DNA of 63,989 nt, filler included, from Fonticula-like sp. SCN 57-25 (taxonomy: Eukaryota), in NCBI GenBank assembly GCA_001724245.1. It is 8 parts of 8 records of this genome, joined end to end, with 100 filler letters (N's around TTAATTAATTAA, not from the genome) between each part and the next. Parts side by side here need not be neighbours in the genome. Positions count along the whole stretch, not along the records: positions 41,432 to 49,444 come from MEDX01000317.1; 7 more parts are not named here. One strand, given 5' to 3'. The notes beneath the pieces were generated by a model. The model saw only the letters and a program-made list of their open reading frames with translations. It made no database searches and was not told where the DNA came from. The translations under genes were made by a program, and so were the position numbers. Within the stretch, counting starts at the first letter, position 1. The number at the start of each line of letters is the position of its first letter. Shown piece by piece: positions 8,148 through 57,635 of this stretch.

Positions 8148-8247
8148 NNNNNNNNNNNNNNNNNNNNNNNNNNNNNNNNNNNNNNNNNNNNTTAATTAAT
8201 TAANNNNNNNNNNNNNNNNNNNNNNNNNNNNNNNNNNNNNNNNNNNN
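8148..8247. other. Artificial contig linker (N-run, TTAATTAATTAA, N-run)
   Basis: Six-frame stop spacer; the same linker recurs at 16332-16431, 24501-24600, 33210-33309, 41332-41431, 49445-49544 and 57536-57635. Confidence 0.97.
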
Positions 8248-16067: not shown

Positions 16068-16677
16068 TCATTGTTGTGTTGCGCGGCGATCTGGCCAGGA
16101 TCTGGCGGTGATGGCGACGGAAGTGGAAAGTGCTGCGGTGCGGATACCTTTCTGGCCGCCGGAAACTCAAAAGCTAACTCTTTCTTTGTTATCGTTGTTG
16201 TTGGTAGAGCCTGGAGCACCTTGAGGGGGTGCTGCATCGCGAAGAGGGCGGCTTGCTCGGCAAATCATTCAAGCCGAGGTGCGAACCGAGACATTTTCTT
16301 GTAAAACAAGCCTAACACCTGCTCGTTGTGTNNNNNNNNNNNNNNNNNNNNNNNNNNNNNNNNNNNNNNNNNNNNTTAATTAATTAANNNNNNNNNNNNN
16401 NNNNNNNNNNNNNNNNNNNNNNNNNNNNNNNAGCCCCTGCGGTGCGTGATTTGAGGCGATTTGAGGCTTTGGAAACGCTGACAGATCGTTACGGTAAACA
16501 TTTACCGGAAAGGTCGGTTTGAGCCCTGTTTAGTAGGGGTGGGTGGCACCCTAAACGCATGCGATTTTCAAATCTTCCGCAAAAAAAGAAACGAAACTGT
16601 GATTGCTGACTGTTGCTGAGCGTTGTGGCGGATTCTGGGCGGATTCGGGATTCCTGCTAGCGACGGCCGACGGGGCC

Positions 16678-22885: not shown

Positions 22886-24832
22886 CCATAATTATAATAA
22901 TAATAATAATACAGAACCATCGATCATAGTCACATCAGTCTGGCATCGTATGTACAGTATCGTACCGTATGATTTTCATTGCGCATAGCTTGCTGATCAG
23001 TATCTGCTCGTTTAATTGAACAATGCCCGTGTATGATATAAATTATCCCAGTCGTATCCGTGGCGCACACGGCATCACGTTAACCTCGATAATGTTTGCT
23101 CAATGATAGTGCCATTGTATTAGTATGGATACAACAAACGAGTAAACATTCATGTTTTCCCGAACATGGCATGCGCTGTCTTTTGACGCTATCTAGGATT
23201 AGGCGACCATTACTCCGTGATTACCTCAGTTTAGCGCGCAATGAGGCAAGTGCTGGTTGTATAATTTTATGGAGAATCGATTGATACCTTACACCACACG
23301 AAGCGTGATTTGAAAGATGATTTGATAAGATGCCTATGGATAGCTCTAAGATCAGACAATGTAAAACTATCAACAGACGAACTCCCCAGAACAAGATGCC
23401 ATGTATCGCAATATAATTATATCAAATTCAGCGTTTCCACTACAATTCAAAAGGATTCTTTTGGACGGTCGAGCGTCTCCGTAAGCTCCTCGATGCGTGG
23501 CGGCGGCAAGCAGCCGCTGTCAGACGGGCTGCAAGGCCTGGCGTCAGGTAGCCACGAGGGTCCCTGAAAGCATTGGTACCACGTCGAGCAAGGACTAGGC
23601 AGAGAAACGTCAACCAGAAGATTGCCAGAAGGTGAAGGGCAGTTTCGGCGATCCAACAGCATAGCGGCATCGGCAGCGACCCCACCGGGCTGGCGATGAT
23701 GTGCGGACGCAGTACAGCAGCGCGCGCCCAACAGCAGCAAAGTTTCGTCAGAAGGGGAGGCGGAAGCGCATGAGCTGCCGAGTGGCCACACGGCTACTGG
23801 CGCGTACGCTGCCCTCCCGGGCCCAGCCGGTGTGTGCCGCAGCCATCCGCAAGCGTCGCGCGCACGACGAAGAGTCGGCTTCGTATGTCGTGCCTCGGGA
23901 ATACCTGGCCATGACGCCAGTGATGCAGAGTCGCGTGCGTCAAGGTGAGCCACCAGCGTCTCACGACTCCACCAAGTCTGCCGCCAGGAACCGCCGCGAC
24001 GCCGTCGGCTCAAGAACAGAACCGCCACGAGATGACCGCCACCAGTGCGGCATCTCGTTCAAAGTCAGGCTGGTGTAATGATAGACGCGATGGCGCAGGG
24101 CGTTCCGGACGCGAAGCAGGCGCGCTCGCATCCGTCTCGCCATGCGCGCTGCGTTCATCCATGCGGAAGAAGGCCTGATCTCCGACGTTGAAAAATTCTT
24201 CATTCCCCTGTCACTGCACGGTGAAAGCGCCAGCGGTCAATTGCTCGTCGAGACGCCCCTCGCGCTCAAGTAGGATTACATGTTCGACACCGAGGCCACC
24301 GCCGCCGTGGCCTCTGTCTGCGGGCGAGATTTTTTATTTTCGTCTCATCGACACATCGCCAATTCTCGGTGGTCTGAGACGAAGTCACGTCGAAGTTACA
24401 GTAGCGAGTGTCCTGACTGAGCTTGACTGAATTTACCGCGCGCCGGCCCAGGATGTGGAGCGCTGTCGCAAAAGTGTCACCTCACATGCTCGTACTGCTT
24501 NNNNNNNNNNNNNNNNNNNNNNNNNNNNNNNNNNNNNNNNNNNNTTAATTAATTAANNNNNNNNNNNNNNNNNNNNNNNNNNNNNNNNNNNNNNNNNNNN
24601 TCAGAGGAGGACGACACGGCGGCCACAGAAGAAGCCATTGCGCGCGTCAAGGCGGCGGCGGCACCTTCGCCGTCGGCAGCCGACCTATAAATTTCAGTCT
24701 TTTTTGTGTAACTATTCATTCCAATAAATGATGCATATTTCTAGCTTGCTTCACTCTTATTGTCTCTAGTACATTTGCAGTGTTTACGTTGTGTACAACC
24801 GCGTGAATCGCCACACGATAAAATAGCTCATC

Positions 24833-33208: not shown

Positions 33209-33309
33209 TNNNNNNNNNNNNNNNNNNNNNNNNNNNNNNNNNNNNNNNNNNNNTTAATTAATTAANNNNNNNNNNNNNNNNNNNNNNNNNNNNNNNNNNN
33301 NNNNNNNNN

Positions 33310-41331: not shown

Positions 41332-41431
41332 NNNNNNNNNNNNNNNNNNNNNNNNNNNNNNNNNNNNNNNNNNNNTTAATTAATTAANNNNNNNNNNNNN
41401 NNNNNNNNNNNNNNNNNNNNNNNNNNNNNNN

Positions 41432-43537
41432 ATGATTGTGACGAGGTGGTCGCCCGAGCGCCGTATTGTGTCAATCATCTCGCGCTGCTCTTCCGACACG
41501 TCGGTCGTCCGCAGCACATCCGCCATGGCAACGACGGCGTACATTGGCGTGCGGATTTCGTGCGACATGACGGCAAGGAACTGGTAGCGGTGCGCGGCAT
41601 TGTCGGCTTCTTCGCGCGCGCGTTTGAGCGCCTCGTTTTGCTCTGTCAGCTGTTTTTGCCGCGCGTCGGCGACTTCGACAAGCCGCGCCTGCGAAAGCGC
41701 CATTTCTGTCTGCGAGCCGACATCGTCAATCAGGTTGAGCAGCACTGTGGCAGGCATGTCGGCAGAGCCTTCTGTGAGGAGAACGCCAAAGACCTGCTCG
41801 GAAAGGCGGACGCGGCGCGCAATGAGGTGCGTCGCAGAGTCAGTGTCGGGCGGTGGGCGGTGACCCATAAGGCGCCACGATCCCATCCTAAGGCACAGTG
41901 GCATCATGTTAGTCATACAAAAAAGGCAAAAAGACGGACCTCTGGTCCAGCAGCATGGCGCTCTCGCTCTGCAAAATCTCTGCAATCAGCTCGTCGTTCA
42001 TTGACACTGTCACTGGCTGCACGCCTTGGTCGGTCACCGTGTACAAGTCGTCGCTGTTGACGCTGCCGCGCGCCGCGGTCGCCGATGCAGACGCCGACGA
42101 CGAACCGGCCGCCGCGCGCTGCTCCTTCTTGCGCCTCCCGACGCGCATGAGCGGTACGCGCGCGTCGGTATCGGCAACGGCACTCCCGCCCGCGTCGGCG
42201 CCGTCGCCCTCGTCGTCGCTCTCAAAGTAGAGCAATTCTTCGCTTGACGAGCTGGCGCCGCCGTGCGCCGCCACTTCGAGCTCGTTCTGCGCGAGCATGC
42301 TGTGCGCCGGCGCGCCGCTGCTTCTGAGCACGCGCCGCGCGACGTACTTGCTCGACAGCGAAACCGACGTTGAGCCGCCGGCGAGCGCCTCGGGCACGAG
42401 AATGATGCACGTCTCCATGCGCAGCGTGCGGCACACTTCCATGGACGTCTTGCGGCAAATGACCTCAGAGTCGAGCGTCCGCCGAATGTTGAAGCTCATC
42501 TCGCGCAGGACGCCGAGCAGCTTGTACTGCTGCTGCATGAGGTTGTCGCGCAGAATGCGGCGGTCGAGGTCGAGCGTCAGCTGGTGCGCGCGGATGGGCA
42601 GGCCGAGGGCCTTTGGGATGATGCGGATCAGCACGACAGAGGTGAGCATTGAGACGACCGCCGTCGATATTTTGGACGCAATGTGGATGGTCTGCGCGGT
42701 GGAAGAGTGGAACCAGTGCGTCGGGATGGACAGAAAGTGCGTCAGGCCGCATAGCGTGATGAAGCAGATGAAAAGAGACAGGACAAGCTGGAACGATGCG
42801 CTTTGTGCAGGGAAGAAAAAGTCAGTAAAAAAACCAAAAAAGAGACGAAAAAAGACGGAAAAAAATGAAAGCGTACGTATTTGTCGTCGGCAGACGCATG
42901 CGGACGGTAAAGTACAGCAGCTGCATCGGAATAGAAAAGTACGCCAGCGAAATCATAATGTCGGCGATGATGACGAGCCACAGTTGCGTGGGATCTGCCA
43001 GGGAAGAGTTAATGGCGGCGGAATCAAGGAAAGGAGCCGAGCGCGGCGTACGAAAAGGAACCGTGCATATTCCGCTGCCCTCGTAGGTACGGATGCCCTC
43101 GTGGGGCGGGTACCTGTGCTGCTCGCCGTCCAACTCAAACTTGTAAAAGTACTCGCGGCAACTGTTGGACTCGCCGAGGAACACTAACAGGGATCATCAG
43201 CACACGTCGGCAAAAGAGGGGCCTAAAAGGCGCGCGCACAGCTCCCCGACGCTATCCCTGACGTAGGCTCGACTGTGAGCGCGAACGACAACGTAGGGCC
43301 TCCATTAAAGATGACCTCGACGTCAATGTCGTTCGACTGCCCGCCGAGATAAAACTCGATGGAGAGCTCGCCAGCCTCTGTCACCCCCAGCGAATGCTGG
43401 ACGGCCGTAACAGCCGACCCGCTCGCGCCCACCGCGCAAAAGAGCAGCACCAACGCCGCCACTATTAGCGTGCTGCGCGCCACCGGCCCTCTCCTTCCCA
43501 GCCTCGGCCGCCTCCTACACTCACTCAACCTACCCAT
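41432..43537 (-). CDS. ETR1-like ethylene receptor histidine kinase with N-terminal extension, 3' truncated by contig end
   Basis: ADIMISLAYFSIPMQLLYF, FICFITLCGLTHF, SKISTAVVSMLTSVVLIRIIP (ethylene-binding domain); GAF start NIRRTLDSEVICRKT; H-box FLAVMSHEIRTPM. Confidence 0.92.
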
Positions 43538-44074
43538 GATCAAACAGGCGCTTCGCGCGCGCTCTCTATCTCGGACCCGCCAGTATGCTGCTGCTGCTTT
43601 CAAGGGGAAAGAGCGTGCAAACGTCGCTTATAAAGGGCGACTGGAAAGGACAAGAGACCCGAAACGGCACAGCCCCTGTCTCCTCCCTGCCGTCGCGCCC
43701 ACGAGCACCGTATCAATCGGTCGTTGTTTACGTTTCGGAATTCATATACGCCGTGACGTCATTGGTCGGTGGGATCGACGAGCACGAAGGCCGAGGCTTG
43801 ACTCGGCGTCGGACGGCGCGGCAGCCAATCGCGTGCGCTGTTCGATTATGGCTCAAAAGGAGTGATGCCCCTATCAAGGGATCCGATTTGGACCCTGTTT
43901 CAGCGTTATTGTACGATTCATAGTGACTTTGGTTGCGGGGGGCCAGAGGCCAAAGTGAACAGTGGTCGTAAAGGGAAAAGTATCGTAATCGCCTCATGTT
44001 TTTTTATCTTTCACTACATCGAACGCTCTGGCGAGGATATACAAAGCGCGGCCGGTTTTTGCAAGGGAGTTGAC

Positions 44075-45389
44075 TTAGATGTGGGACACCTGCCAGACAC
44101 GGATGAGGTTGTCGGTGTGGCCAGAGAAGAGGAACTGGCCATCGGCCGACCAGGCGAGGGAGATGCACTGGGGGGTGAGCGAGTGCTTGCCGAGGTTCTC
44201 GAACTCCATCTTGAGCTCATCGACGACGTTCTTGCTCTCGAGATCCTGTAAAACCAAATTGTGATTAGAAAAAGTGAAAAAGAGCCACAAATGTCTAGCG
44301 TACCCAGATCTTGATGGTGGAGCCAGTGGCAGCGCAGAGCCAGTAGCGGTTGGGCGAGAAGCAGAGAGCATTGATCTCCTCTCCGGCCTCGAGCGAGTAG
44401 AGGTGGCGACGGTCATTGAGGTCCCAGAGCATGGTGACGCCGTCCTTGCCGCCCGAAGCGCAGAGCGAGCCGTCGGGGGAGACGCTGACGGTGTTCACGT
44501 TGCCGTTGTGGCCCTTGTGCACCGTGCGGAGCTTGCAGTTGCTGAGGTTCCAGACCTATAGGGACATATCGTCAGAACACTCCATCTGCAAAAAAAAAAA
44601 ACGCACCTTGACGGTCTTGTCCCAGGAGCCCGAAACGATGAGGGGGTTGGCAGTGTTGGGGGAGAAGCGAACGGCCGAGACCCAGTCGCTGTGACCCTCC
44701 TCAGTGATGGTGTACTTGCACTCACCGAGGGTGTTCCACAGCTTGATGGTGCGGTCGCGAGCGCCCGACACGATCTGGCGGTTGTCCTGCGAGAACGAAA
44801 CGCTGAGGACATCGGCAGTGTGGCCAACGAACTGGCGGGTGGTGGTGCCAGCGTTAAGGTCCCAGAGGCGGAGGGTCTTGTCTGTAAATGCGGGAAAACA
44901 AATCTGATTTAGTACGCAGGAATACATCGAGCAGCACGCTGCGCATGCCACCAGGCCGGATCGCAGCGTGCTGTGGAAATTCAGGCAATTAAAACGCACC
45001 CCACGACGCGGTCAGGGCGAACTGGCCGTCCGAGGAGACCACGACATCAGAGATGAAGTGGTTGTGGCCCTTGAGCGCCTTCTTGGCGTAACCGTACTCG
45101 ACGCCATCGCGGGTAAGGTGCCAGATCATCAGCGTCTTGTCTGAGCTTCCCGTTAGCAACATGCACAAGAGAAGCGAAAGAGGAGCCTCGCGGATGGCGG
45201 ATGGCGAGCTCTCCGCCATCGGCGGGACCGCCCGAGGATGGATGCCGCCATCTGCCATCCGCTCCGCATCCGTGACGTACCGCGGGAGCCCGAGAGCAAA
45301 ACATCGGGGTTCTCGCTGGACGTGGCAATCGAGGTGACCCAGCCAGAGTGGCCCTTGAGCACACCGCGCAGCGTAAGTGTCTCCGCCAT
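44075..45389 (-). CDS. RACK1: RACK1 (Asc1/Cpc2), multi-exon
   Basis: [72 protein letters not shown]. Confidence 0.98.
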
Positions 45390-45575
45390 TATGACCTGCT
45401 GCCTCTACGTGGGGGATGCAGGAGGGAGATGAGAGGCCGAACCTGCAAGGTGATGCGTTCCGGATGAACCAAACCGGGTGGTACAAAAAGCGTCCCCCCG
45501 ATCCACAAGCCTGTCACAGGTTGTAAAATCCGGTTTCCATAAATTTTCTTTTTCGGGTCTCGATTGTTGTATTGG

Positions 45576-45649
45576 GTTCAAATGGTGTAGAAGGTTATCA
45601 CGGCTGTCTCACACACAGCAGGTCCCAGGTTCGAGTCCTGGTTTGAACA
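45576..45649 (+). tRNA. tRNA-Val (CAC), copy 1
   Basis: GTTCAAA/TTTGAAC acceptor, GCTGT-CTCACAC-ACAGC anticodon arm, CCAGG-TTCGAGT-CCTGG T-arm, downstream T-run. Confidence 0.95.
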
Positions 45650-46552: not shown

Positions 46553-46978
46553 ACAACCATCTTCGCCAACAGCGCCGCTTTGCTTTGTGCCACCTGCGAC
46601 AAAGATGGAGCTTTTAGAACAAACGTAGTATTCCTTTCTTTAAAAATTACGGTCGCTCTTTGAAGCCCTAATAGGGTATTATATATCATCACCATGCATC
46701 TTTGACATCACTGCGATTGTATCTTCAACACCTTTCGAATCTAAAACACCAATGTAGACAATGATTATTCTTCCCGCCTGACCCCCATCCTCCACACAAA
46801 AGCATATAAAATGATAGAAAAACAGCTTAGTATGCTACTGTCAAGAGAACGCCGTCACTAGACCCAACTACGACAAGCATGCGCGAATCTGCGGCGCACC
46901 ATGCCGCGCGCTGCACAGCTGGCAAAGTTTGCTCTCGGCCGTAATGTTCAATTGTCATTTTCATCCAATAATTGGTAT

Positions 46979-47052
46979 GTTCAAATGGTGTAGAAGGTTA
47001 TCACGGCTGTCTCACACACAGCAGGTCCCAGGTTCGAGTCCTGGTTTGAACA
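46979..47052 (+). tRNA. tRNA-Val (CAC), copy 2
   Basis: Identical to 45576-45649; downstream T-run. Confidence 0.95.
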
Positions 47053-47206
47053 GCTCAAATTTTTTGATTTTTTTTTGGATGGAATCAACGAGTCGTATAA
47101 CTTTTTATTCGCAGTTTCCTCTTCTTTCTTGCTTTTAATGTCGCCCACAACACATAAAAGCTGCATTTCACTATATATTTACTCATACAGATACCAAAAG
47201 TGTGCC

Positions 47207-48447: not shown

Positions 48448-48521
48448 TGCCCACACCCGGGATCGAACCGGGGACCTCCAGTTTACGAGACTGGCGCTCT
48501 ACCACTGAGCTATACAAGAGC
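48448..48521 (-). tRNA. tRNA-Thr (CGT) with irregular acceptor stem
   Basis: TAGCTCAGTGGTAGAGC D-arm, CCAGT-CTCGTAA-ACTGG, CCCGG-TTCGATC-CCGGG; 5' strand GCTCTTGTA versus 3' TGTGGGC-A. Confidence 0.85.
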
Positions 48522-49444: not shown

Positions 49445-49544
49445 NNNNNNNNNNNNNNNNNNNNNNNNNNNNNNNNNNNNNNNNNNNNTTAATTAATTAA
49501 NNNNNNNNNNNNNNNNNNNNNNNNNNNNNNNNNNNNNNNNNNNN

Positions 49545-50283: not shown

Positions 50284-51335
50284 CTACTTGGCGCCCTTTT
50301 CGAGCGTGCGGAGAACCTCCTGCGCAGCGAGCGGGATGCGCGTGCCTATACAAACACGAAAACATTAGTCAAAAAGAACCAAAAAACGCTTCTTTAACTC
50401 TTCGTACCGGGACCAAAGATGGCGGCGGCGCCCGCCTTGTAGAGGAACTCGTAATCCTGCGGCGGAATCACGCCACCCACAATGACGAGCTTGTCGCTGG
50501 CACCGAGCTTTGCGAGCTCGGCCACGAGCGCCGGCACGAGCGTCTTGTGCCCCGCCGCCTGCGACGACACGCCCACAATATGGACATCCGCATCGACCGC
50601 CTGCCTCGCGACCTCCTCCGGCGTCTGGAACAGCGGCCCGACATCGACGTCAAAGCCGAGGTCAGCAAAGCCCGTGGCGATCACCTTGGCGCCGCGATCG
50701 TGCCCGTCCTGCCCCATCTTTGCGACGAGGATGCGCGGGCGGCGGCCCTCCCTGTCGGCGTACGCCTGCACGAGCGCCTGCGTGTCGGTGATCTCGCTCT
50801 CGTCGCCAAACTCGGACTTGTACGCGCCGCTCACGTAGCGCGTCGGCGGCGAGTAGCGGCCCGACGCCTTCTCGACGGCGAACGAGATCTCGCCGACAGT
50901 GCAGCGAGCGCGCGCCGCCTCAATGGCGAGCGCGAGCAGGTTGCCCTCGCCGGTCGAAGCGGCGTTCGAGACGGCCTCGAGCGCCGCCTTGGCCTTGGCG
51001 TCGTCGCGCTCGGCGCGCACCTTGTTGATGCGCGCAATCTGCTTCTCGCGCACGGCAGAGTTGTCAATCGAAAGCACGTCAATGCTCTCCTCCGTCTTGA
51101 GGCGGTACTTGTTCACGCCGACAATCGTCTCCTGAACAGAGTCAATGCGCGCCTGCTTGCGCGCGGCGGCCTCTTCAATGCGCAGCTTGGGCATGCCGCT
51201 CGCGATCGCCTTGGTCATGCCGCCAAGCTCCTCAATCTCGTTGATGATCTTGAGGGCAGCGTCGGCGACCTCGGTCGTGAGCGACTCCATCATGTACGAG
51301 CCGCCCCAGGGGTCGGCGACGCGCGGGATCTGCGC

Positions 51336-51368
<33 letters not shown>

Positions 51369-52970
51369 AATGCGGGCCGAGAACTCGGTCGGGAGGCCGA
51401 CGGCTTCGTCAAGGGCGTTGGTGTGGAGCGACTGAGTGCCGCCGAGCGTGGCGGAAAGGGCCTCGATGGTCGTGCGGATGACGTTGTTGTAGGGGTCCTG
51501 CTCGGTGAGCGAGACGCCAGAGGTCTGGCAGTGAGCGCGGAGAAGGAGCGAGCGAGCGTCCTTGGCGCCGAAGCGCTCCTGGAGAAGCTGCGCCCAGAGG
51601 CGGCGGCCGGCACGCATCTTGGCGATTTCCTGTTGGGGTGGTTAGCGAGAGAGGGGGGAAAAAGTGGGCGAAAATGGACAGAAAAGTACAAAATGAGTCA
51701 AAAAAGGTACAAAAAGGCACCAAAATATTGCAAAACAACACAAAAATGCTTCAAATTTAACATTCACCACCAACGCACCATGAAAAAGTTCATGCCGATG
51801 GCCCAGAAGAACGAAAGGCGCGGCGCAAAGTCGTCAATGTTCATGCCCGTCTTGACACCCGTGCGGCAGTACTCGAGACCGTCGGCAATCGTAAAGGCAA
51901 GCTCGAGAACCGGGTCGGCGCCGGCCTCCTGCATGTGGTAGCCAGAAATGGAAATGCTGTTGTACTTTGGCATTTGCTGCGCTTTTCCGTCAGCAAAACG
52001 CTCAAAACAGACCTTAAATAAGCATATTTCGTACCTTGGCGGTGAAGGAAAAGATGTCGGCAATGATGCGCATCGACATGTCGGGCGGGTAGATGAACGT
52101 GTTGCGGACCATGAACTCCTTAAGAATGTCGTTCTGGATGGTGCCCTTGAGCTCGTCAAGGTTGGCGCCCTGCTCCTGCGCGGCGACAACGTACATGGCG
52201 AGGATGGGGAGAACAGCGCCGTTCATCGTCATCGAAACGGACATTTTGTTGAGCGGGATCCCGTCAAACAAGATCTACATGCGGTGGATCAGCGGAAGAA
52301 AGATCGCGACCGGGATCGCACCTTCATGTCCTCGACAGAGTCGATGGCGACACCGGCCATGCCAACGTCGCCAACCACGCGCGGGTGGTCCGAGTCATAA
52401 CTAGCAAAAAAACACTGTTAGCTCGCAAGCGATCGCGGCATCCCCGCGTACCCGCGGTGAGTGGCGAGATCAAAGGCGACGGAGAGGCCCTGCTGGCCGG
52501 CGGCGAGGTTCTTGCGGTAGAACGCGTTCGACTCCTCGACGGTACTGAAGCCGGCGTACTGGCGGACGGTCCACGGCTTGACCGTGTACATGGTGGCGTG
52601 CGGGCCGCGCGTGTACGGGAACTTGCCGGGAAGCTCGTTCGGGAAGCCGGCGACATCGGCCTGGGTGTACACGGGCTTGACGGCGATGCCCTCGGGCGAG
52701 TTCCACACAAGGTCGCTCACCGCCTTCTTGCCCTTGAGCTCCTTGGTCGCAATCTTGGACCACTCCTGGTCAAGCGGGACGCGAAGCGCGGCCTGGGAAC
52801 AGGTGTCAGAGAGGGATGGCGTCAAATAAGCGCAAAGCATGGATCGTGCGAAATTTTGGTATCGAAAAAAAGACAGGAAAGCATGCAAGAGACGGGCAAA
52901 TATATAGAGAGGAGAGCATGCGTACCGGAGCGCGCGCGGCGAGCCGGCGAGCATTGTGCCAGAAAGCCAT
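50284..52970 (-). CDS. MMUT: Methylmalonyl-CoA mutase (adenosylcobalamin-dependent), mitochondrial, multi-exon
   Basis: [48 protein letters not shown]12 motif [18 protein letters not shown]. Confidence 0.98.
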
Positions 52971-53560
52971 GGCAGATCGAGGCGGGTGGGCAAAAGTCTC
53001 TCTGCTCACGTGATGTGATGATATACGGCCATATGGTATCATACAGCCTTCTGTCGATATAGTCGCGAAGTTATAATACGGGCCGAGGTATGATTTAACT
53101 ATTGCACGCTAAAATGAGGTAGCAGCCAGCAGCACCAGCGCAAGGCCTGGCCGTATGTTCCTGTGTATTTCTATTGTTTTGACAACTGTCGACGTCGGTG
53201 GTTTGAAACCTGAAATGGTGGTGATCAATCTTAGACTAACCGACGCCACCAATCGCAGCCATAAGCAAAATTGCTTACTAGCCGCCGACGGCTAAAGGTG
53301 GGCAAACTATAGCATGTGGCACTGGCCAATTACGTCGACAGCCGCGCAGGATCTTTGTCGGCATCGAACGCATCACCGATTACACAGCCAACGAACACCT
53401 CCCATTGGTCAACACAAATCTTCAAATGTCGTTCCCCGGATAAACGTATATCCGAATCACGCAGAAAATTCATTAATACAATCAAACCATAATTTTGGAA
53501 TTGAATATGTTCCTCAAGTTAAACACGGACCTGTCCATCCAAGGTCGTCAAAAATATGAT

Positions 53561-55907
53561 GGGGAATGTTATTTCCAGGTGACCAATCTTAGTTCCAGGA
53601 TGGCAAAATTTGAAAATTTGTGTCAGCCAATGAACATCCATGGATATAGCTATGCACAGCCCAATCAGCGCACTTGATTCTGCGCAGCAGCATGGACGGC
53701 GGCGACGATGCCGCCATGCCAGAGGAATGGCTCGACGATGCGGCCATGCCAGAGGAATGGTTCGACGATGCGCTTGAGGGAGAAGAGTCCCCTCCACCAA
53801 ATGACGATTTGGACGAAGCGGATCTGCCTGCGGCCGCGGCCGCGGAAGCCGCTTTTACTACCCAGGTTGACGGCGAAGGCTTCCAGTCGCGCCAAGAGCT
53901 GTTGAACTTTGCGCAGACGAGGGCGCGCTACAGCGGGTTTGCAGTGAGCATTACCAGCTCAAAGCACGACAGAGTTTTTCTGGCGTGTTCCCGTGGTGGC
54001 AGCTACCGGAACCGCCTTGGTCTGTCTGAAAATCAACGCCGACGCCGGACGGGCTCCAAAAAGGACGGTTGCGGATTTACCCTCCGCGGCCAACTAGTGA
54101 ACCGTCTCTGGAGGTTGACTACCACCAACGACACGCACAACCACCCACCGGCTCGTTCGCAGGATGCAGACCCCAGGCACCGCCGCATACCCGAAGCGGG
54201 CCGCCGCACGGTAGCGGAGATGACGAACAGTGGCGTGCGCCCGGCGGCCATTCTCAGCACGCTTCGCCGCTCCTTTCCGAACAGCCTGGTGACGGACAGA
54301 GAAGTGTACAACGAACGCAGGCGTATCCGCGACGAACAGATCGGTGGCCGCACCCCTGTCCAAGCACTGCTCGATGACCTTCTAGAGCTCGGCCATTTTG
54401 CTCGTTTCGAGACGGACGCGAACAACGCCATAACGCACTTGCTCTTCACGACCTCTCAGTCTGTGAATTTGGCGGCCCAGTTTGGAAGCGTCCTTTTCAT
54501 GGACTGCACATACAAGTCCAACCGCTACGGAATGCCGCTGCTGGATATTGTTGGTGCAACGAACAACAACGATACTTTTTTTGTGGCGGGAGTGTTCCTC
54601 CGCAGCGAGACGGCCGAGGACTATCTTTGGGCAATGCGCGCTCTTTCCCAGCTGATCAATTTCCAGCCGCGCGTTATTGTGACTGACCGAGAACTCGCCC
54701 TCATCAACGCGCTGGAGCTCATCTGGCCTAACGCGCGCCTGTTTTTGTGTCGCTGGCACATTAACAAGAACGTCCTTGCGAACTGCAAGCAGCTTTTTCC
54801 CAACAATGACCATTGGGAGGCATTTTACGCGGCGTGGCACGACATTGTCCAAGCACGTACTCCCGACGTGTACACGCAAAGGTGGGAGGCCTTCCAGGCG
54901 ACGTACGCGCACCTCAACCCCACGCTGCGGTACTTGCACAACACGTGGCTGCAGTACAAGGAGCGTTTTGTCGCCGCGTGGACCGACAACGTGCGGCACT
55001 ACAACGCAACAGTGACGTCCCGTGTGGAGGGAGCTCACCACATGCTGAAGGACTATATCGGCAGCTCCACCGGCGACGTCCACAGAGTCGTGCATCGCAT
55101 GCTCGACGCCATCGCCAACCACGCTTCGAGGATTTCGACGAAGCTGGGGCGCGATGGCCAACGGCATATGCACATGCCGAACGCGGCGTTTTGGCAACAG
55201 GTATATTCCTTCATGATACAGTTTTCAATGATTTCTTACGCTCAGAATAGATTCAGACTCGCATCACCAAGTTCGCCCTCTTCAAGATGCGTGACGAGTA
55301 CACCAAGGTACAGCGCGCCAACTTCATGCGCGAGGAGCTCGCCGCTTGCACTGGGTACCACCGCAATGTACTTGGCCTTCCTTGCGCACACACGCTCTCT
55401 CTGCGGCTGCGTCAGGGCGGCGTCGTGCAGATGGCCGACATCGACCCTCACTGGCACCTAAGGGGTGCAGTTGTTCAGCCGATGGTACAAGAGCCCATTG
55501 CGCGGGTGCCACTTGGGCGCCCTGGAAACGCACCTAGGCTGGAGTTGCGCCACGAGCGGGTGGAGCGCCAGCTTGCACAGGAAGCGCGCCGGAATGCTCG
55601 CCACTGTGGCATCTGCCGTGTGGCGGGCCACACCAGAGCAACATGCCCGCAGCGTTAATGCCCCTCGCCCATCCCATCTCGACGACACACTACCTTTTTC
55701 TTTATATTCCCTCCATTCTCCAACCGTGTCCAACGCTATCATCGCTCGTCGTTAGTAGACCTGCAGACCACAGCATGACAGTACCTATCATCCTTCTTTG
55801 CCCTGTCACTGTTGATTCGAAAAATAAACAACGCTCATTGGCTGACACAAATTTTCAAATTTTGCCATCCTGGAACTAAGATTGGTCACCTGGAAATAAC
55901 ATTCCCC
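53561..55907 (+). mobile_element. Mutator-like (MULE) DNA transposon, 2347 bp, perfect 73-bp TIRs
   Basis: TIR 53561-53633 (GGGGAATGTTATTTCCAGG...CAGCCAATGA) is the exact reverse complement of 55835-55907; encloses the transposase. Confidence 0.95.
53692..55658 (+). CDS. MULE transposase (FAR1-like DBD, DDE, SWIM, CCHC knuckle); intron 55201-55250
   Basis: CSRGG..SKKDGCGF..HNH; MDCTYKSNRY; VTDRELAL; LCRWHINKN; TSRVEGAH; CTG..GLPCAH; CGICRVAGHTRATC. Confidence 0.95.
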
Positions 55908-57535: not shown

Positions 57536-57635
57536 NNNNNNNNNNNNNNNNNNNNNNNNNNNNNNNNNNNNNNNNNNNNTTAATTAATTAANNNNNNNNN
57601 NNNNNNNNNNNNNNNNNNNNNNNNNNNNNNNNNNN

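Follow-up and report, generated by a model that had tools for sequence, protein, structure and literature searches.

Two fungal relatives of the plant ethylene receptors, GpHHK2 of Gonapodya prolifera and RiHHK6 of Rhizophagus irregularis, are built, according to their entries in Text S1 of Herivaux et al. (2017; PMC5285503), from one series of parts: a leader, an all-beta domain of about 110 amino acids (aa), the ethylene-binding membrane domain, a long helix, a GAF domain with a variable insert, and HisKA. In ETR1 itself, Cys65 and His69 are the copper ligands, and Asp25 and Lys91 are required for high-affinity binding and signaling; members of the family from plants and from cyanobacteria have been demonstrated to bind ethylene (accessible portions of PMC10266040). 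Here, we describe a locus with the same order of parts as the two fungal proteins in a stretch of 63,989 bases from the assembly of Fonticula-like sp. SCN 57-25 (GCA_001724245.1), the whole of which we refer to as the window. The locus probably contains the first two-thirds, counted from the 5' end, of a gene encoding a histidine kinase of the ETR1 family that resembles the ethylene receptors (below, the window receptor); its bearer would be an uncultured eukaryote, most likely an early-diverging fungus, from a bioreactor metagenome. It adds an ethylene receptor homologue from an uncultured organism to the non-plant set known from sequence, and it supplies a third, divergent copy of the N-terminal domain (N-domain) common to the two published fungal receptors, which makes this domain more amenable to definition, folding, and testing. 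As a system, it is not of a new kind.

The family assignment comes from the membrane domain. In the spliced translation, which contains all of the peptides quoted in an earlier note on this DNA, the Pfam family ETR1_N (PF25487; score cutoff of 27 bits) is matched in two parts, by exon 2 (E value of 2.2e-7, 31.5 bits, profile positions 3 to 31 of 97) and by exon 3 (E value of 1.8e-12, 47.8 bits, profile positions 36 to 96 of 97). The product has four hydrophobic segments, namely, a leader window at aa 16 to 47 and three transmembrane (TM) helices, TM1 to TM3, at aa 166 to 190, 201 to 229, and 242 to 271. When aligned with plant, fungal, and cyanobacterial rows, residues D174, C219, H223, and K245 fall at the positions of ETR1 Asp25, Cys65, His69, and Lys91, and alignment to a plant receptor places Y181, I184, P185, and I216 at the positions of ETR1 Y32, I35, P36, and I62. 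The spacing from D to C to H to K is 45/4/22 in the window receptor versus 40/4/22 in the plant row P0198; the ETR1 numbering was taken from the accessible portions of PMC10266040 together with this spacing in P0198. With the residues aligned and both ETR1_N and HisKA matched, the claim of the earlier note that the gene encodes an ETR1-like receptor kinase retaining the copper/ethylene residues stands. A HMMER search of 1.84 billion representative proteins with exon 3 returned 346 relatives at E values of ≤1e-3 and 24 at ≤1e-10. The sole match at an E value of ≤1e-30 is a mis-called fragment of exon 3 itself, and the best true relative, P0002, has 39 to 41% identity in the membrane domain.

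About 150 residues precede TM1, and they include a pre-membrane segment of about 110 aa behind a leader that follows a basic N-region and is seen as a hydrophobic window only. In ten of the 150 relatives listed, over 100 residues lie ahead of the TM1 motif. Directly ahead of the membrane domain, three proteins, P0009, P0015, and P0054, carry a chain of motifs (C-R-x-Y, an aromatic strand, R-[WY]-P, and G-x-C); in the window receptor, the second half of the N-domain, encoded by exon 2, has the motif C-R-E-Y...R-Y-P...G-I-C. By its source, P0054 is a protein of Gonapodya prolifera, and it equals the GpHHK2 entry of PMC5285503, Text S1; P0009 and P0015 resemble, by eye, RiHHK6, whose entry in the same file (Rhizophagus) likewise shows a leader and this domain with its motifs. 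The pre-membrane part of exon 2 scores z values of 9.0, 6.8, and 6.0 against P0009, P0015, and P0054, respectively, with none of 300 shuffles reaching the score, and z values of at most 1.4 against P0017, P0061, and four proteins lacking the domain. A phmmer comparison of the second half of the N-domain with P0009 gave an E value of 0.0015 among 150 proteins, and tblastn placed residues 94 to 157 of P0015 and 133 to 204 of P0054 on positions 43169 to 42900. A hidden Markov model (HMM) built from the N-domains of P0009, P0015, and P0054 ranked the exon 2 open reading frame (ORF) first among 1231 six-frame ORFs of the window, at an E value of 0.014 versus 2.6 for the next. Judged from sequence, we regard the second half of the N-domain as demonstrably homologous to the N-terminal domain of GpHHK2 and RiHHK6-like proteins.

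The first half of the domain is more loosely tied to these relatives. The mature part of exon 1 matches residues 97 to 134 of P0054 with a z value of 3.8 (0 of 300 shuffles), a weak similarity that is collinear with, and lies directly upstream of, the exon 2 match; against the eight other proteins tried, similarity is absent (for example, z values of -0.4 for P0009 and 1.4 for P0015). The first half of the N-domain and the joining of exon 1 are thus proposed from gene structure and weak similarity. The N-domain as a whole appears to be real and not unique, having been present already in sequences published in 2017. The earlier note, which described a signal peptide and an extra domain ahead of the ethylene-binding domain as unusual, was right about the hydrophobic leader and the pre-membrane domain and mistaken about their novelty, given that the same domain occurs in GpHHK2 and RiHHK6.

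The gene model has four exons on the minus strand, from 43537 down to 41432, and yields a partial product of 640 aa (Table 1). Intron 2 is supported because the two parts of ETR1_N abut across exons 2 and 3, and a reading of the junction sequence by hand turned up no alternative pairing of donor and acceptor that would preserve the frame. Reading through intron 3 leads to a stop at 41909, as exemplified by the mis-called fragment P0001. The GC content at third codon positions (GC3) is 0.73 to 0.86 in all four exons, with 0.42 to 0.70 at the first and second positions (GC1 and GC2), and that of the introns is 0.34 to 0.59; for exon 1, the values are 0.76 (GC3), 0.58 (GC1), and 0.55 (GC2). On the same contig, the RACK1-like gene contains four introns, with the donors GTACGC, GTGCGT, GTGCGT, and GTACGT and the branch-like boxes CTAAT, CTGAC, CTAAA, and CTAAC, a style that the receptor introns share. 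Exon 2 contains no Met ahead of TM1, yet its frame there remains open over 60 codons showing homology to the N-domains of other receptors, and an upstream coding exon is therefore required. Exon 1, whose start at 43537 is the first ATG following an in-frame stop, supplies that ATG, a leader, a phase-matched donor of the contig style GT[AG]CG[CT], and coding periodicity.

One other form of intron 1, with a GTCAGG or GTCGGG donor and a CAACAG acceptor, would remove 11 to 16 linker residues and match the spacing of the homologues better. We rejected it as the main model because its donors depart from the GT[AG]CG[CT] style of the contig and because TTAG, the acceptor retained in Table 1, is the first AG past the branch point.

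Beyond TM3, the receptor continues through a GAF-like region to the beginning of the kinase. In the homologue P0015, Pfam detects a GAF domain (E value of 4.1e-6, residues 274 to 418), and residues 161 to 364 and 358 to 511 of this protein align with exons 3 and 4 by tblastn; the corresponding region of the homologue P0009 folds as a GAF domain, both in its model and in fold searches. We infer a GAF domain in the window receptor by way of these homologues, so that the GAF similarity put forward in the earlier note holds in alignment with GAF-bearing homologues and not as a direct Pfam detection. The region carries a Ser/Ala/Gly/Asp-rich insert, also reported there as out of the ordinary. The insert is real, and it lies within the range of the family, since between the end of TM3 and the H-box there are 341 aa in the window receptor, compared with 248 aa in P0015, 282 aa in P0003, 299 aa in P0061, and 338 aa in P0054. 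HisKA is matched with an E value of 2.7e-15 over profile positions 2 to 53 of 66, where the contig end cuts it, and the H-box reads S-H-E-I-R-T-P, with His598 as the phospho-acceptor.

Database searches assigned the N-domain to no named family. Pfam returned none for it in five homologues at E values of ≤5 and none in the window exons at E values of ≤1. A search of Protein Data Bank (PDB) sequences with exon 3 gave 0 matches at E values of ≤1, and a profile of alignment A2 reached, at best, an E value of 0.27, to a TonB fragment that we judged to be a chance match. In the model of P0009, the N-domain is predicted as an eight-strand, all-beta unit with predicted local distance difference test (pLDDT) values of 60 to 82; fold searches with this 485-aa model returned lists filled by the GAF domain. 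The structural comparison that the earlier note had proposed for the N-domain was unsuccessful: an AlphaFold model of residues 1 to 274 of P0054 (6 rows) had pLDDT values of 32 to 53 over the N-domain, which made it unusable, and Foldseek with that model found no match at E values of ≤0.001. The ESM Atlas gave no usable match to the N-domains of P0054 and P0009. Word-indexed searches returned nothing for exon 3 against longer proteins, P0054 itself only for residues 75 to 190 of P0054, and 88 matches for alignment A2, with coverage extending past the membrane domain in P0054 and P0061 only; because both of these already stood in the query alignment, the A2 search added no new member. A scan of metagenome contigs with exon 3 picked out 131 pattern stretches, among which tblastn found 0 relatives.

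Our literature search found no published description of the N-domain. In its accessible portions, PMC5285503 treats the extra N-terminal part only as an additional transmembrane helix, and the term "signal peptide" is absent from its text. Among the 13 fungal receptor entries examined in its Text S1, the N-domain is present in two (RiHHK6 and GpHHK2), a leader followed by a low-complexity linker in four, and a start close to or within the membrane domain in seven. A leader and low-complexity linker also take the place of the domain in P0002, making its distribution among close relatives patchy.

Two further receptor homologues, P0017 and P0061 (the latter from Synchytrium endobioticum, by its source), have N-terminal extensions of 120 to 230 aa. 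MAFFT aligns these extensions with the N-domain, and their similarity to that of the window receptor is nonsignificant (z values of ≤1.4); they could be degenerate copies of the domain or unrelated.

To place the receptor, we built a quick maximum-likelihood tree from 68 rows and 163 columns of the membrane domain and linker (one row, P0050, is mis-cut), with branch support from the Shimodaira-Hasegawa-like approximate likelihood ratio test (SH-aLRT). The window receptor falls outside the plant clade (33 rows; SH-aLRT of 99) and outside the bacterial/cyanobacterial clade (13 rows; SH-aLRT of 98). The fork on which it stands adjoins an 11-row clade (SH-aLRT of 97) and an 8-row clade (SH-aLRT of 84), and besides P0002, the nearest rows by path belong to the 11-row clade, whose members match, by eye, published entries from Conidiobolus, Basidiobolus, Rozella, Catenaria, and Allomyces. 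For a 93-aa exon of the RACK1-like neighbor, the best PDB scores were to the ribosome entries 7olc and 7r81, which we take to be from filamentous fungi, and then to mammalian and other animal entries; plant-named entries scored lower. Tree and RACK1 scores therefore indicate an opisthokont and argue against a plant or algal contaminant, and the source is most likely an early-diverging fungus. The earlier attribution to a non-plant microbe is borne out by the position of the receptor outside the plant and bacterial/cyanobacterial clades, and the phylogeny that the earlier note asked for lends no support to a plant or algal contaminant as the origin.

Set beside the described systems, the window receptor is closest in layout to GpHHK2 and RiHHK6, with about 30 to 40% identity to them in the membrane domain and a weakly matched first half of the N-domain. 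It has 16 additional residues between the last Cys and TM1 and five more in the TM1-TM2 loop, and it is not grouped with the GpHHK2/RiHHK6-like rows in the tree. The nearest named rows by tree path are instead CcHHK3 (Conidiobolus), Bm|388937| (Basidiobolus), RaHHK2 (Rozella), CaHHK2 (Catenaria), and AMAG_07058 (Allomyces). These five fungal homologues share with it the style of the linker after TM3 (PKA-x-x-LP, then IRR-[ST]-LD), whereas they are without the beta domain and begin either a few residues ahead of TM1 or with a leader and a low-complexity linker. Arabidopsis ETR1 and other plant receptors have in common with the window receptor the equivalents of Asp25, Cys65, His69, and Lys91, the GAF-like region, and the H-box His. 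The subfamily-1-like plant row P0198 has a short N terminus, with Asp 26 residues from its start, in contrast to the roughly 150 extra residues ahead of TM1 here, and the GAF insert of the window receptor is larger than that of plant receptors. Bacterial and cyanobacterial proteins of the SynEtr1 type share the ethylene-binding domain, and a conserved Cys that they carry just ahead of TM1 lines up with the final Cys in the N-domain of the window receptor, but they continue into PAS, GGDEF, or other modules, lack the leader-led beta domain, and form a separate clade.

The order of parts suggests how such a receptor might work. The N terminus of ETR1 lies on the non-cytoplasmic side of the membrane, and the leader of the window receptor would direct its all-beta N-domain to that side, lumenal or extracellular. 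A Cu(I) ion with Cys219 and His223 as ligands, assisted by Asp174 and Lys245, would bind ethylene, or some comparable small alkene, within the membrane, and the signal would pass along the long helix to the GAF-like domain and on to the kinase, which would autophosphorylate His598 and feed a His-Asp phosphorelay. Such a relay is expected because its relatives of this kind are hybrid kinases, equipped with HATPase and receiver domains. For the N-domain, a part in folding, dimer formation, or positioning seems more likely than a second ligand input; its two conserved Cys residues and its absence from most fungal homologues are our reasons for favoring a structural or dimerizing role. A bolder idea, to which we give little credence, is that the leader-led beta domain represents an extracytoplasmic module, ancient and as yet without a name, that marks a distinct subclass of fungal ethylene receptors (Glomeromycotina, Monoblepharidomycetes, and this lineage) and provides a second input or a control of dimer state, whereby a cue perceived outside the membrane would gate the sensing of the gas within it. 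The partners of a phosphorelay sought at the suggestion of the earlier note did not appear: among 128 of the 141 window ORFs of at least 130 aa, compared with Pfam at E values of ≤1e-5, none belonged to the HPt, receiver, RTE1-like, or copper-ATPase families, a result that applies to the window and not to the genome. The 13 ORFs omitted are those that overlap the receptor or occupy overlapping frames on its contig.

Other explanations of the locus differ over what the N-domain does, whether exon 1 belongs to the gene, what the membrane domain senses, and where the contig comes from. By eye, the pattern Y-x-[FY]...R-[WY]-P in the N-domain is reminiscent of carbohydrate-binding beta-sandwiches (CBM20/CBM48-like), a likeness that no tool supported and that we set aside. 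Were the domain to bind a second extracellular ligand, such as a glycan, as the earlier note proposed, the protein would be a dual-input sensor that combines this signal with ethylene binding. In favor of this reading are the predicted all-beta fold of the domain and its conserved location in three or more lineages (those of the window receptor, of Gonapodya, and of the RiHHK6-like proteins), but neither a carbohydrate-binding nor any other Pfam family was found on it at the thresholds given above, and its profile met nothing among PDB sequences below an E value of 0.27. The domain is present in only 2 of the 13 fungal entries examined in Text S1, and its lack in P0002 makes it dispensable for the receptor core. 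We hold dual input to be unlikely and a glycan ligand to be speculative. It is improbable, in our estimation, that exon 1 is foreign to the gene, with the start lying elsewhere or the exon being a chance ORF and the protein beginning near TM1 as in plant subfamily 1. Exon 1 finds no significant family match and is missed by the N-domain HMM, three of its five differences among public sequences (described below) change a residue, and no RNA run for the locus is listed; set against this are the Met-less, homologous opening of exon 2, which needs a coding exon upstream, and the properties of exon 1 itself, namely, the first ATG, a leader resembling that of GpHHK2 and that of RiHHK6, the phase-matched donor, a GC3 of 0.76, and collinearity with residues 97 to 134 of P0054.

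The membrane domain might respond to a cue other than ethylene, such as copper status or another small unsaturated molecule, leaving "ethylene receptor" as a family name only. No ethylene response is known for this organism, and our literature search found no direct ethylene-binding assay on an early-diverging fungal homologue; all of the ETR1 Cu(I)/ethylene residues are nevertheless kept (D174, C219, H223, and K245), and we consider a different cue distinctly unlikely. We assign a very small probability to an origin of the contig in a plant, alga, or cyanobacterium, whether by contamination or by recent transfer. Plants and cyanobacteria are where the family is most familiar, but the tree excludes the window receptor from both the plant and the bacterial/cyanobacterial clades, the three short spliceosomal introns are styled like those of the neighboring RACK1, and RACK1 itself matches 7olc and 7r81 (taken to be fungal) and then animal entries ahead of plant-named ones. 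Our preferred explanation, an ETR1-family receptor kinase led by an N-domain in an early-diverging fungus, has its own difficulties, and the following observations weigh against it. HATPase and receiver domains would lie beyond the contig end, leaving kinase competence and a hybrid architecture unproven, and no exon of the window receptor has a Pfam GAF match at an E value of ≤1. No RNA run for the locus is listed among the public runs, so the splice junctions are unconfirmed, and exon 1 has no Pfam family match, is not reached by the N-domain HMM, and resembles P0054 only. The closest relative, P0002, is without the N-domain; the fork bearing it and the window receptor is unresolved, and the window receptor falls outside the 8-row clade (SH-aLRT of 84) that holds the Gonapodya, Synchytrium, and RiHHK6-like rows. 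Finally, five of the 12 coding differences seen among public sequences change a residue (the other seven are synonymous), and one change, R601H, falls in the H-box, albeit from a single contig of depth 2.

These differences come from public sequencing runs. The best public match for the stretch is a bioreactor metagenome run in which all sampled words are present, and smaller shares of words occur in runs labeled wastewater, aquatic, fungus metagenome, manure, and soil. Over positions 41432 to 43700, pieces that are at least 99% alike were found in four runs from three studies (X1, X2, X4, and X5), two of them bioreactor runs of one study, one an aquatic run, and one a fungus metagenome run. 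The aquatic and fungus metagenome runs differ from the window at some bases, and one bioreactor run may be the window's own source. Public contigs aligned on the receptor locus show no joints, and two of them reach beyond 41432, X1 record 1 by 120 nucleotides (nt) and X4 record 11 by 454 nt.

Seven identical artificial joiners (N44-TTAATTAATTAA-N44) interrupt the window about every 8 kb, from which it follows that the window consists of eight metagenome-bin contigs of about 8 kb strung together, that arguments from neighborhood end at each joiner, and that a single organism is not guaranteed. The receptor gene occupies the left end of the contig at 41432 to 49444 and breaks off at 41432 because that contig ends there; the DNA to the left of 41332 is another contig, and tblastn with the kinase or receiver parts of four homologues found no second matching site in the window. 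The earlier note had counted a shared intron style against contamination. This argument is weak across the window, a chain of separate contigs, and holds within the receptor's contig, in the donors and branch points of RACK1.

Table 1. Predicted features of the receptor locus, with neighboring genes and artificial joiners, in positions of the window
Feature	Position	Strand	Remarks
Exon 1	43240-43537	-	ATG at 43537, basic N-region, hydrophobic leader, first half of N-domain
Leader	43421-43471	-	About aa 23 to 39
Intron 1	43184-43239	-	56 nt; donor GTGCGC, branch CTGAT, acceptor TTAG; phase 1
Exon 2	42877-43183	-	Second half of N-domain (ends near 43068), linker, TM1
TM1	42912-42986	-	In exon 2; Asp174 at 42960-42962
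Intron 2	42801-42876	-	76 nt; GTACGC, ACTGAC, AAAG; phase 2; in TM1-TM2 loop; GC content of 0.34
Exon 3	41940-42800	-	TM2, TM3, coiled linker, first part of GAF-like region with insert
TM2	42722-42793	-	In exon 3; Cys219 at 42749-42751, His223 at 42737-42739
TM3	42596-42682	-	In exon 3; Lys245 at 42671-42673
Intron 3	41888-41939	-	52 nt; GTCCGT, GACTAAC, TTAG; phase 2
Exon 4	41432-41887	-	End of GAF-like region, coiled coil, HisKA; cut by contig end
HisKA	41434-41589	-	His598 at 41560-41562
RACK1-like WD40 gene	44078-45390	-	Four short introns; receptor's contig
tRNA-Val(CAC)	45576-45649	+	Receptor's contig
tRNA-Val(CAC)	46978-47054	+	Receptor's contig
tRNA-Thr(CGT)	48448-48519	-	Receptor's contig
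Methylmalonyl-CoA mutase gene	50397-53005	-	At least three exons; other contig
Mutator-like transposase	53650-55458	+	603-aa frame
Joiners	8148-8247, 16332-16431, 24501-24600, 33210-33309, 41332-41431, 49445-49544, 57536-57635		Non-biological

Outside the receptor gene, its contig carries, in addition to the RACK1-like gene, three tRNA genes that lie between protein-coding genes, the two for tRNA-Val(CAC) having equal Rfam scores. The other contigs of the window hold ordinary eukaryotic genes. One encodes a B12-dependent methylmalonyl-CoA mutase (MM_CoA_mutase and B12-binding domains), an enzyme that, to our knowledge, is absent from most Dikarya and present in animals, many protists, and early-diverging fungi. 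Another gene of the window encodes a Mutator-like transposase with MULE transposase and ZSWIM-type RNaseH-like domains, which appears to be intact.

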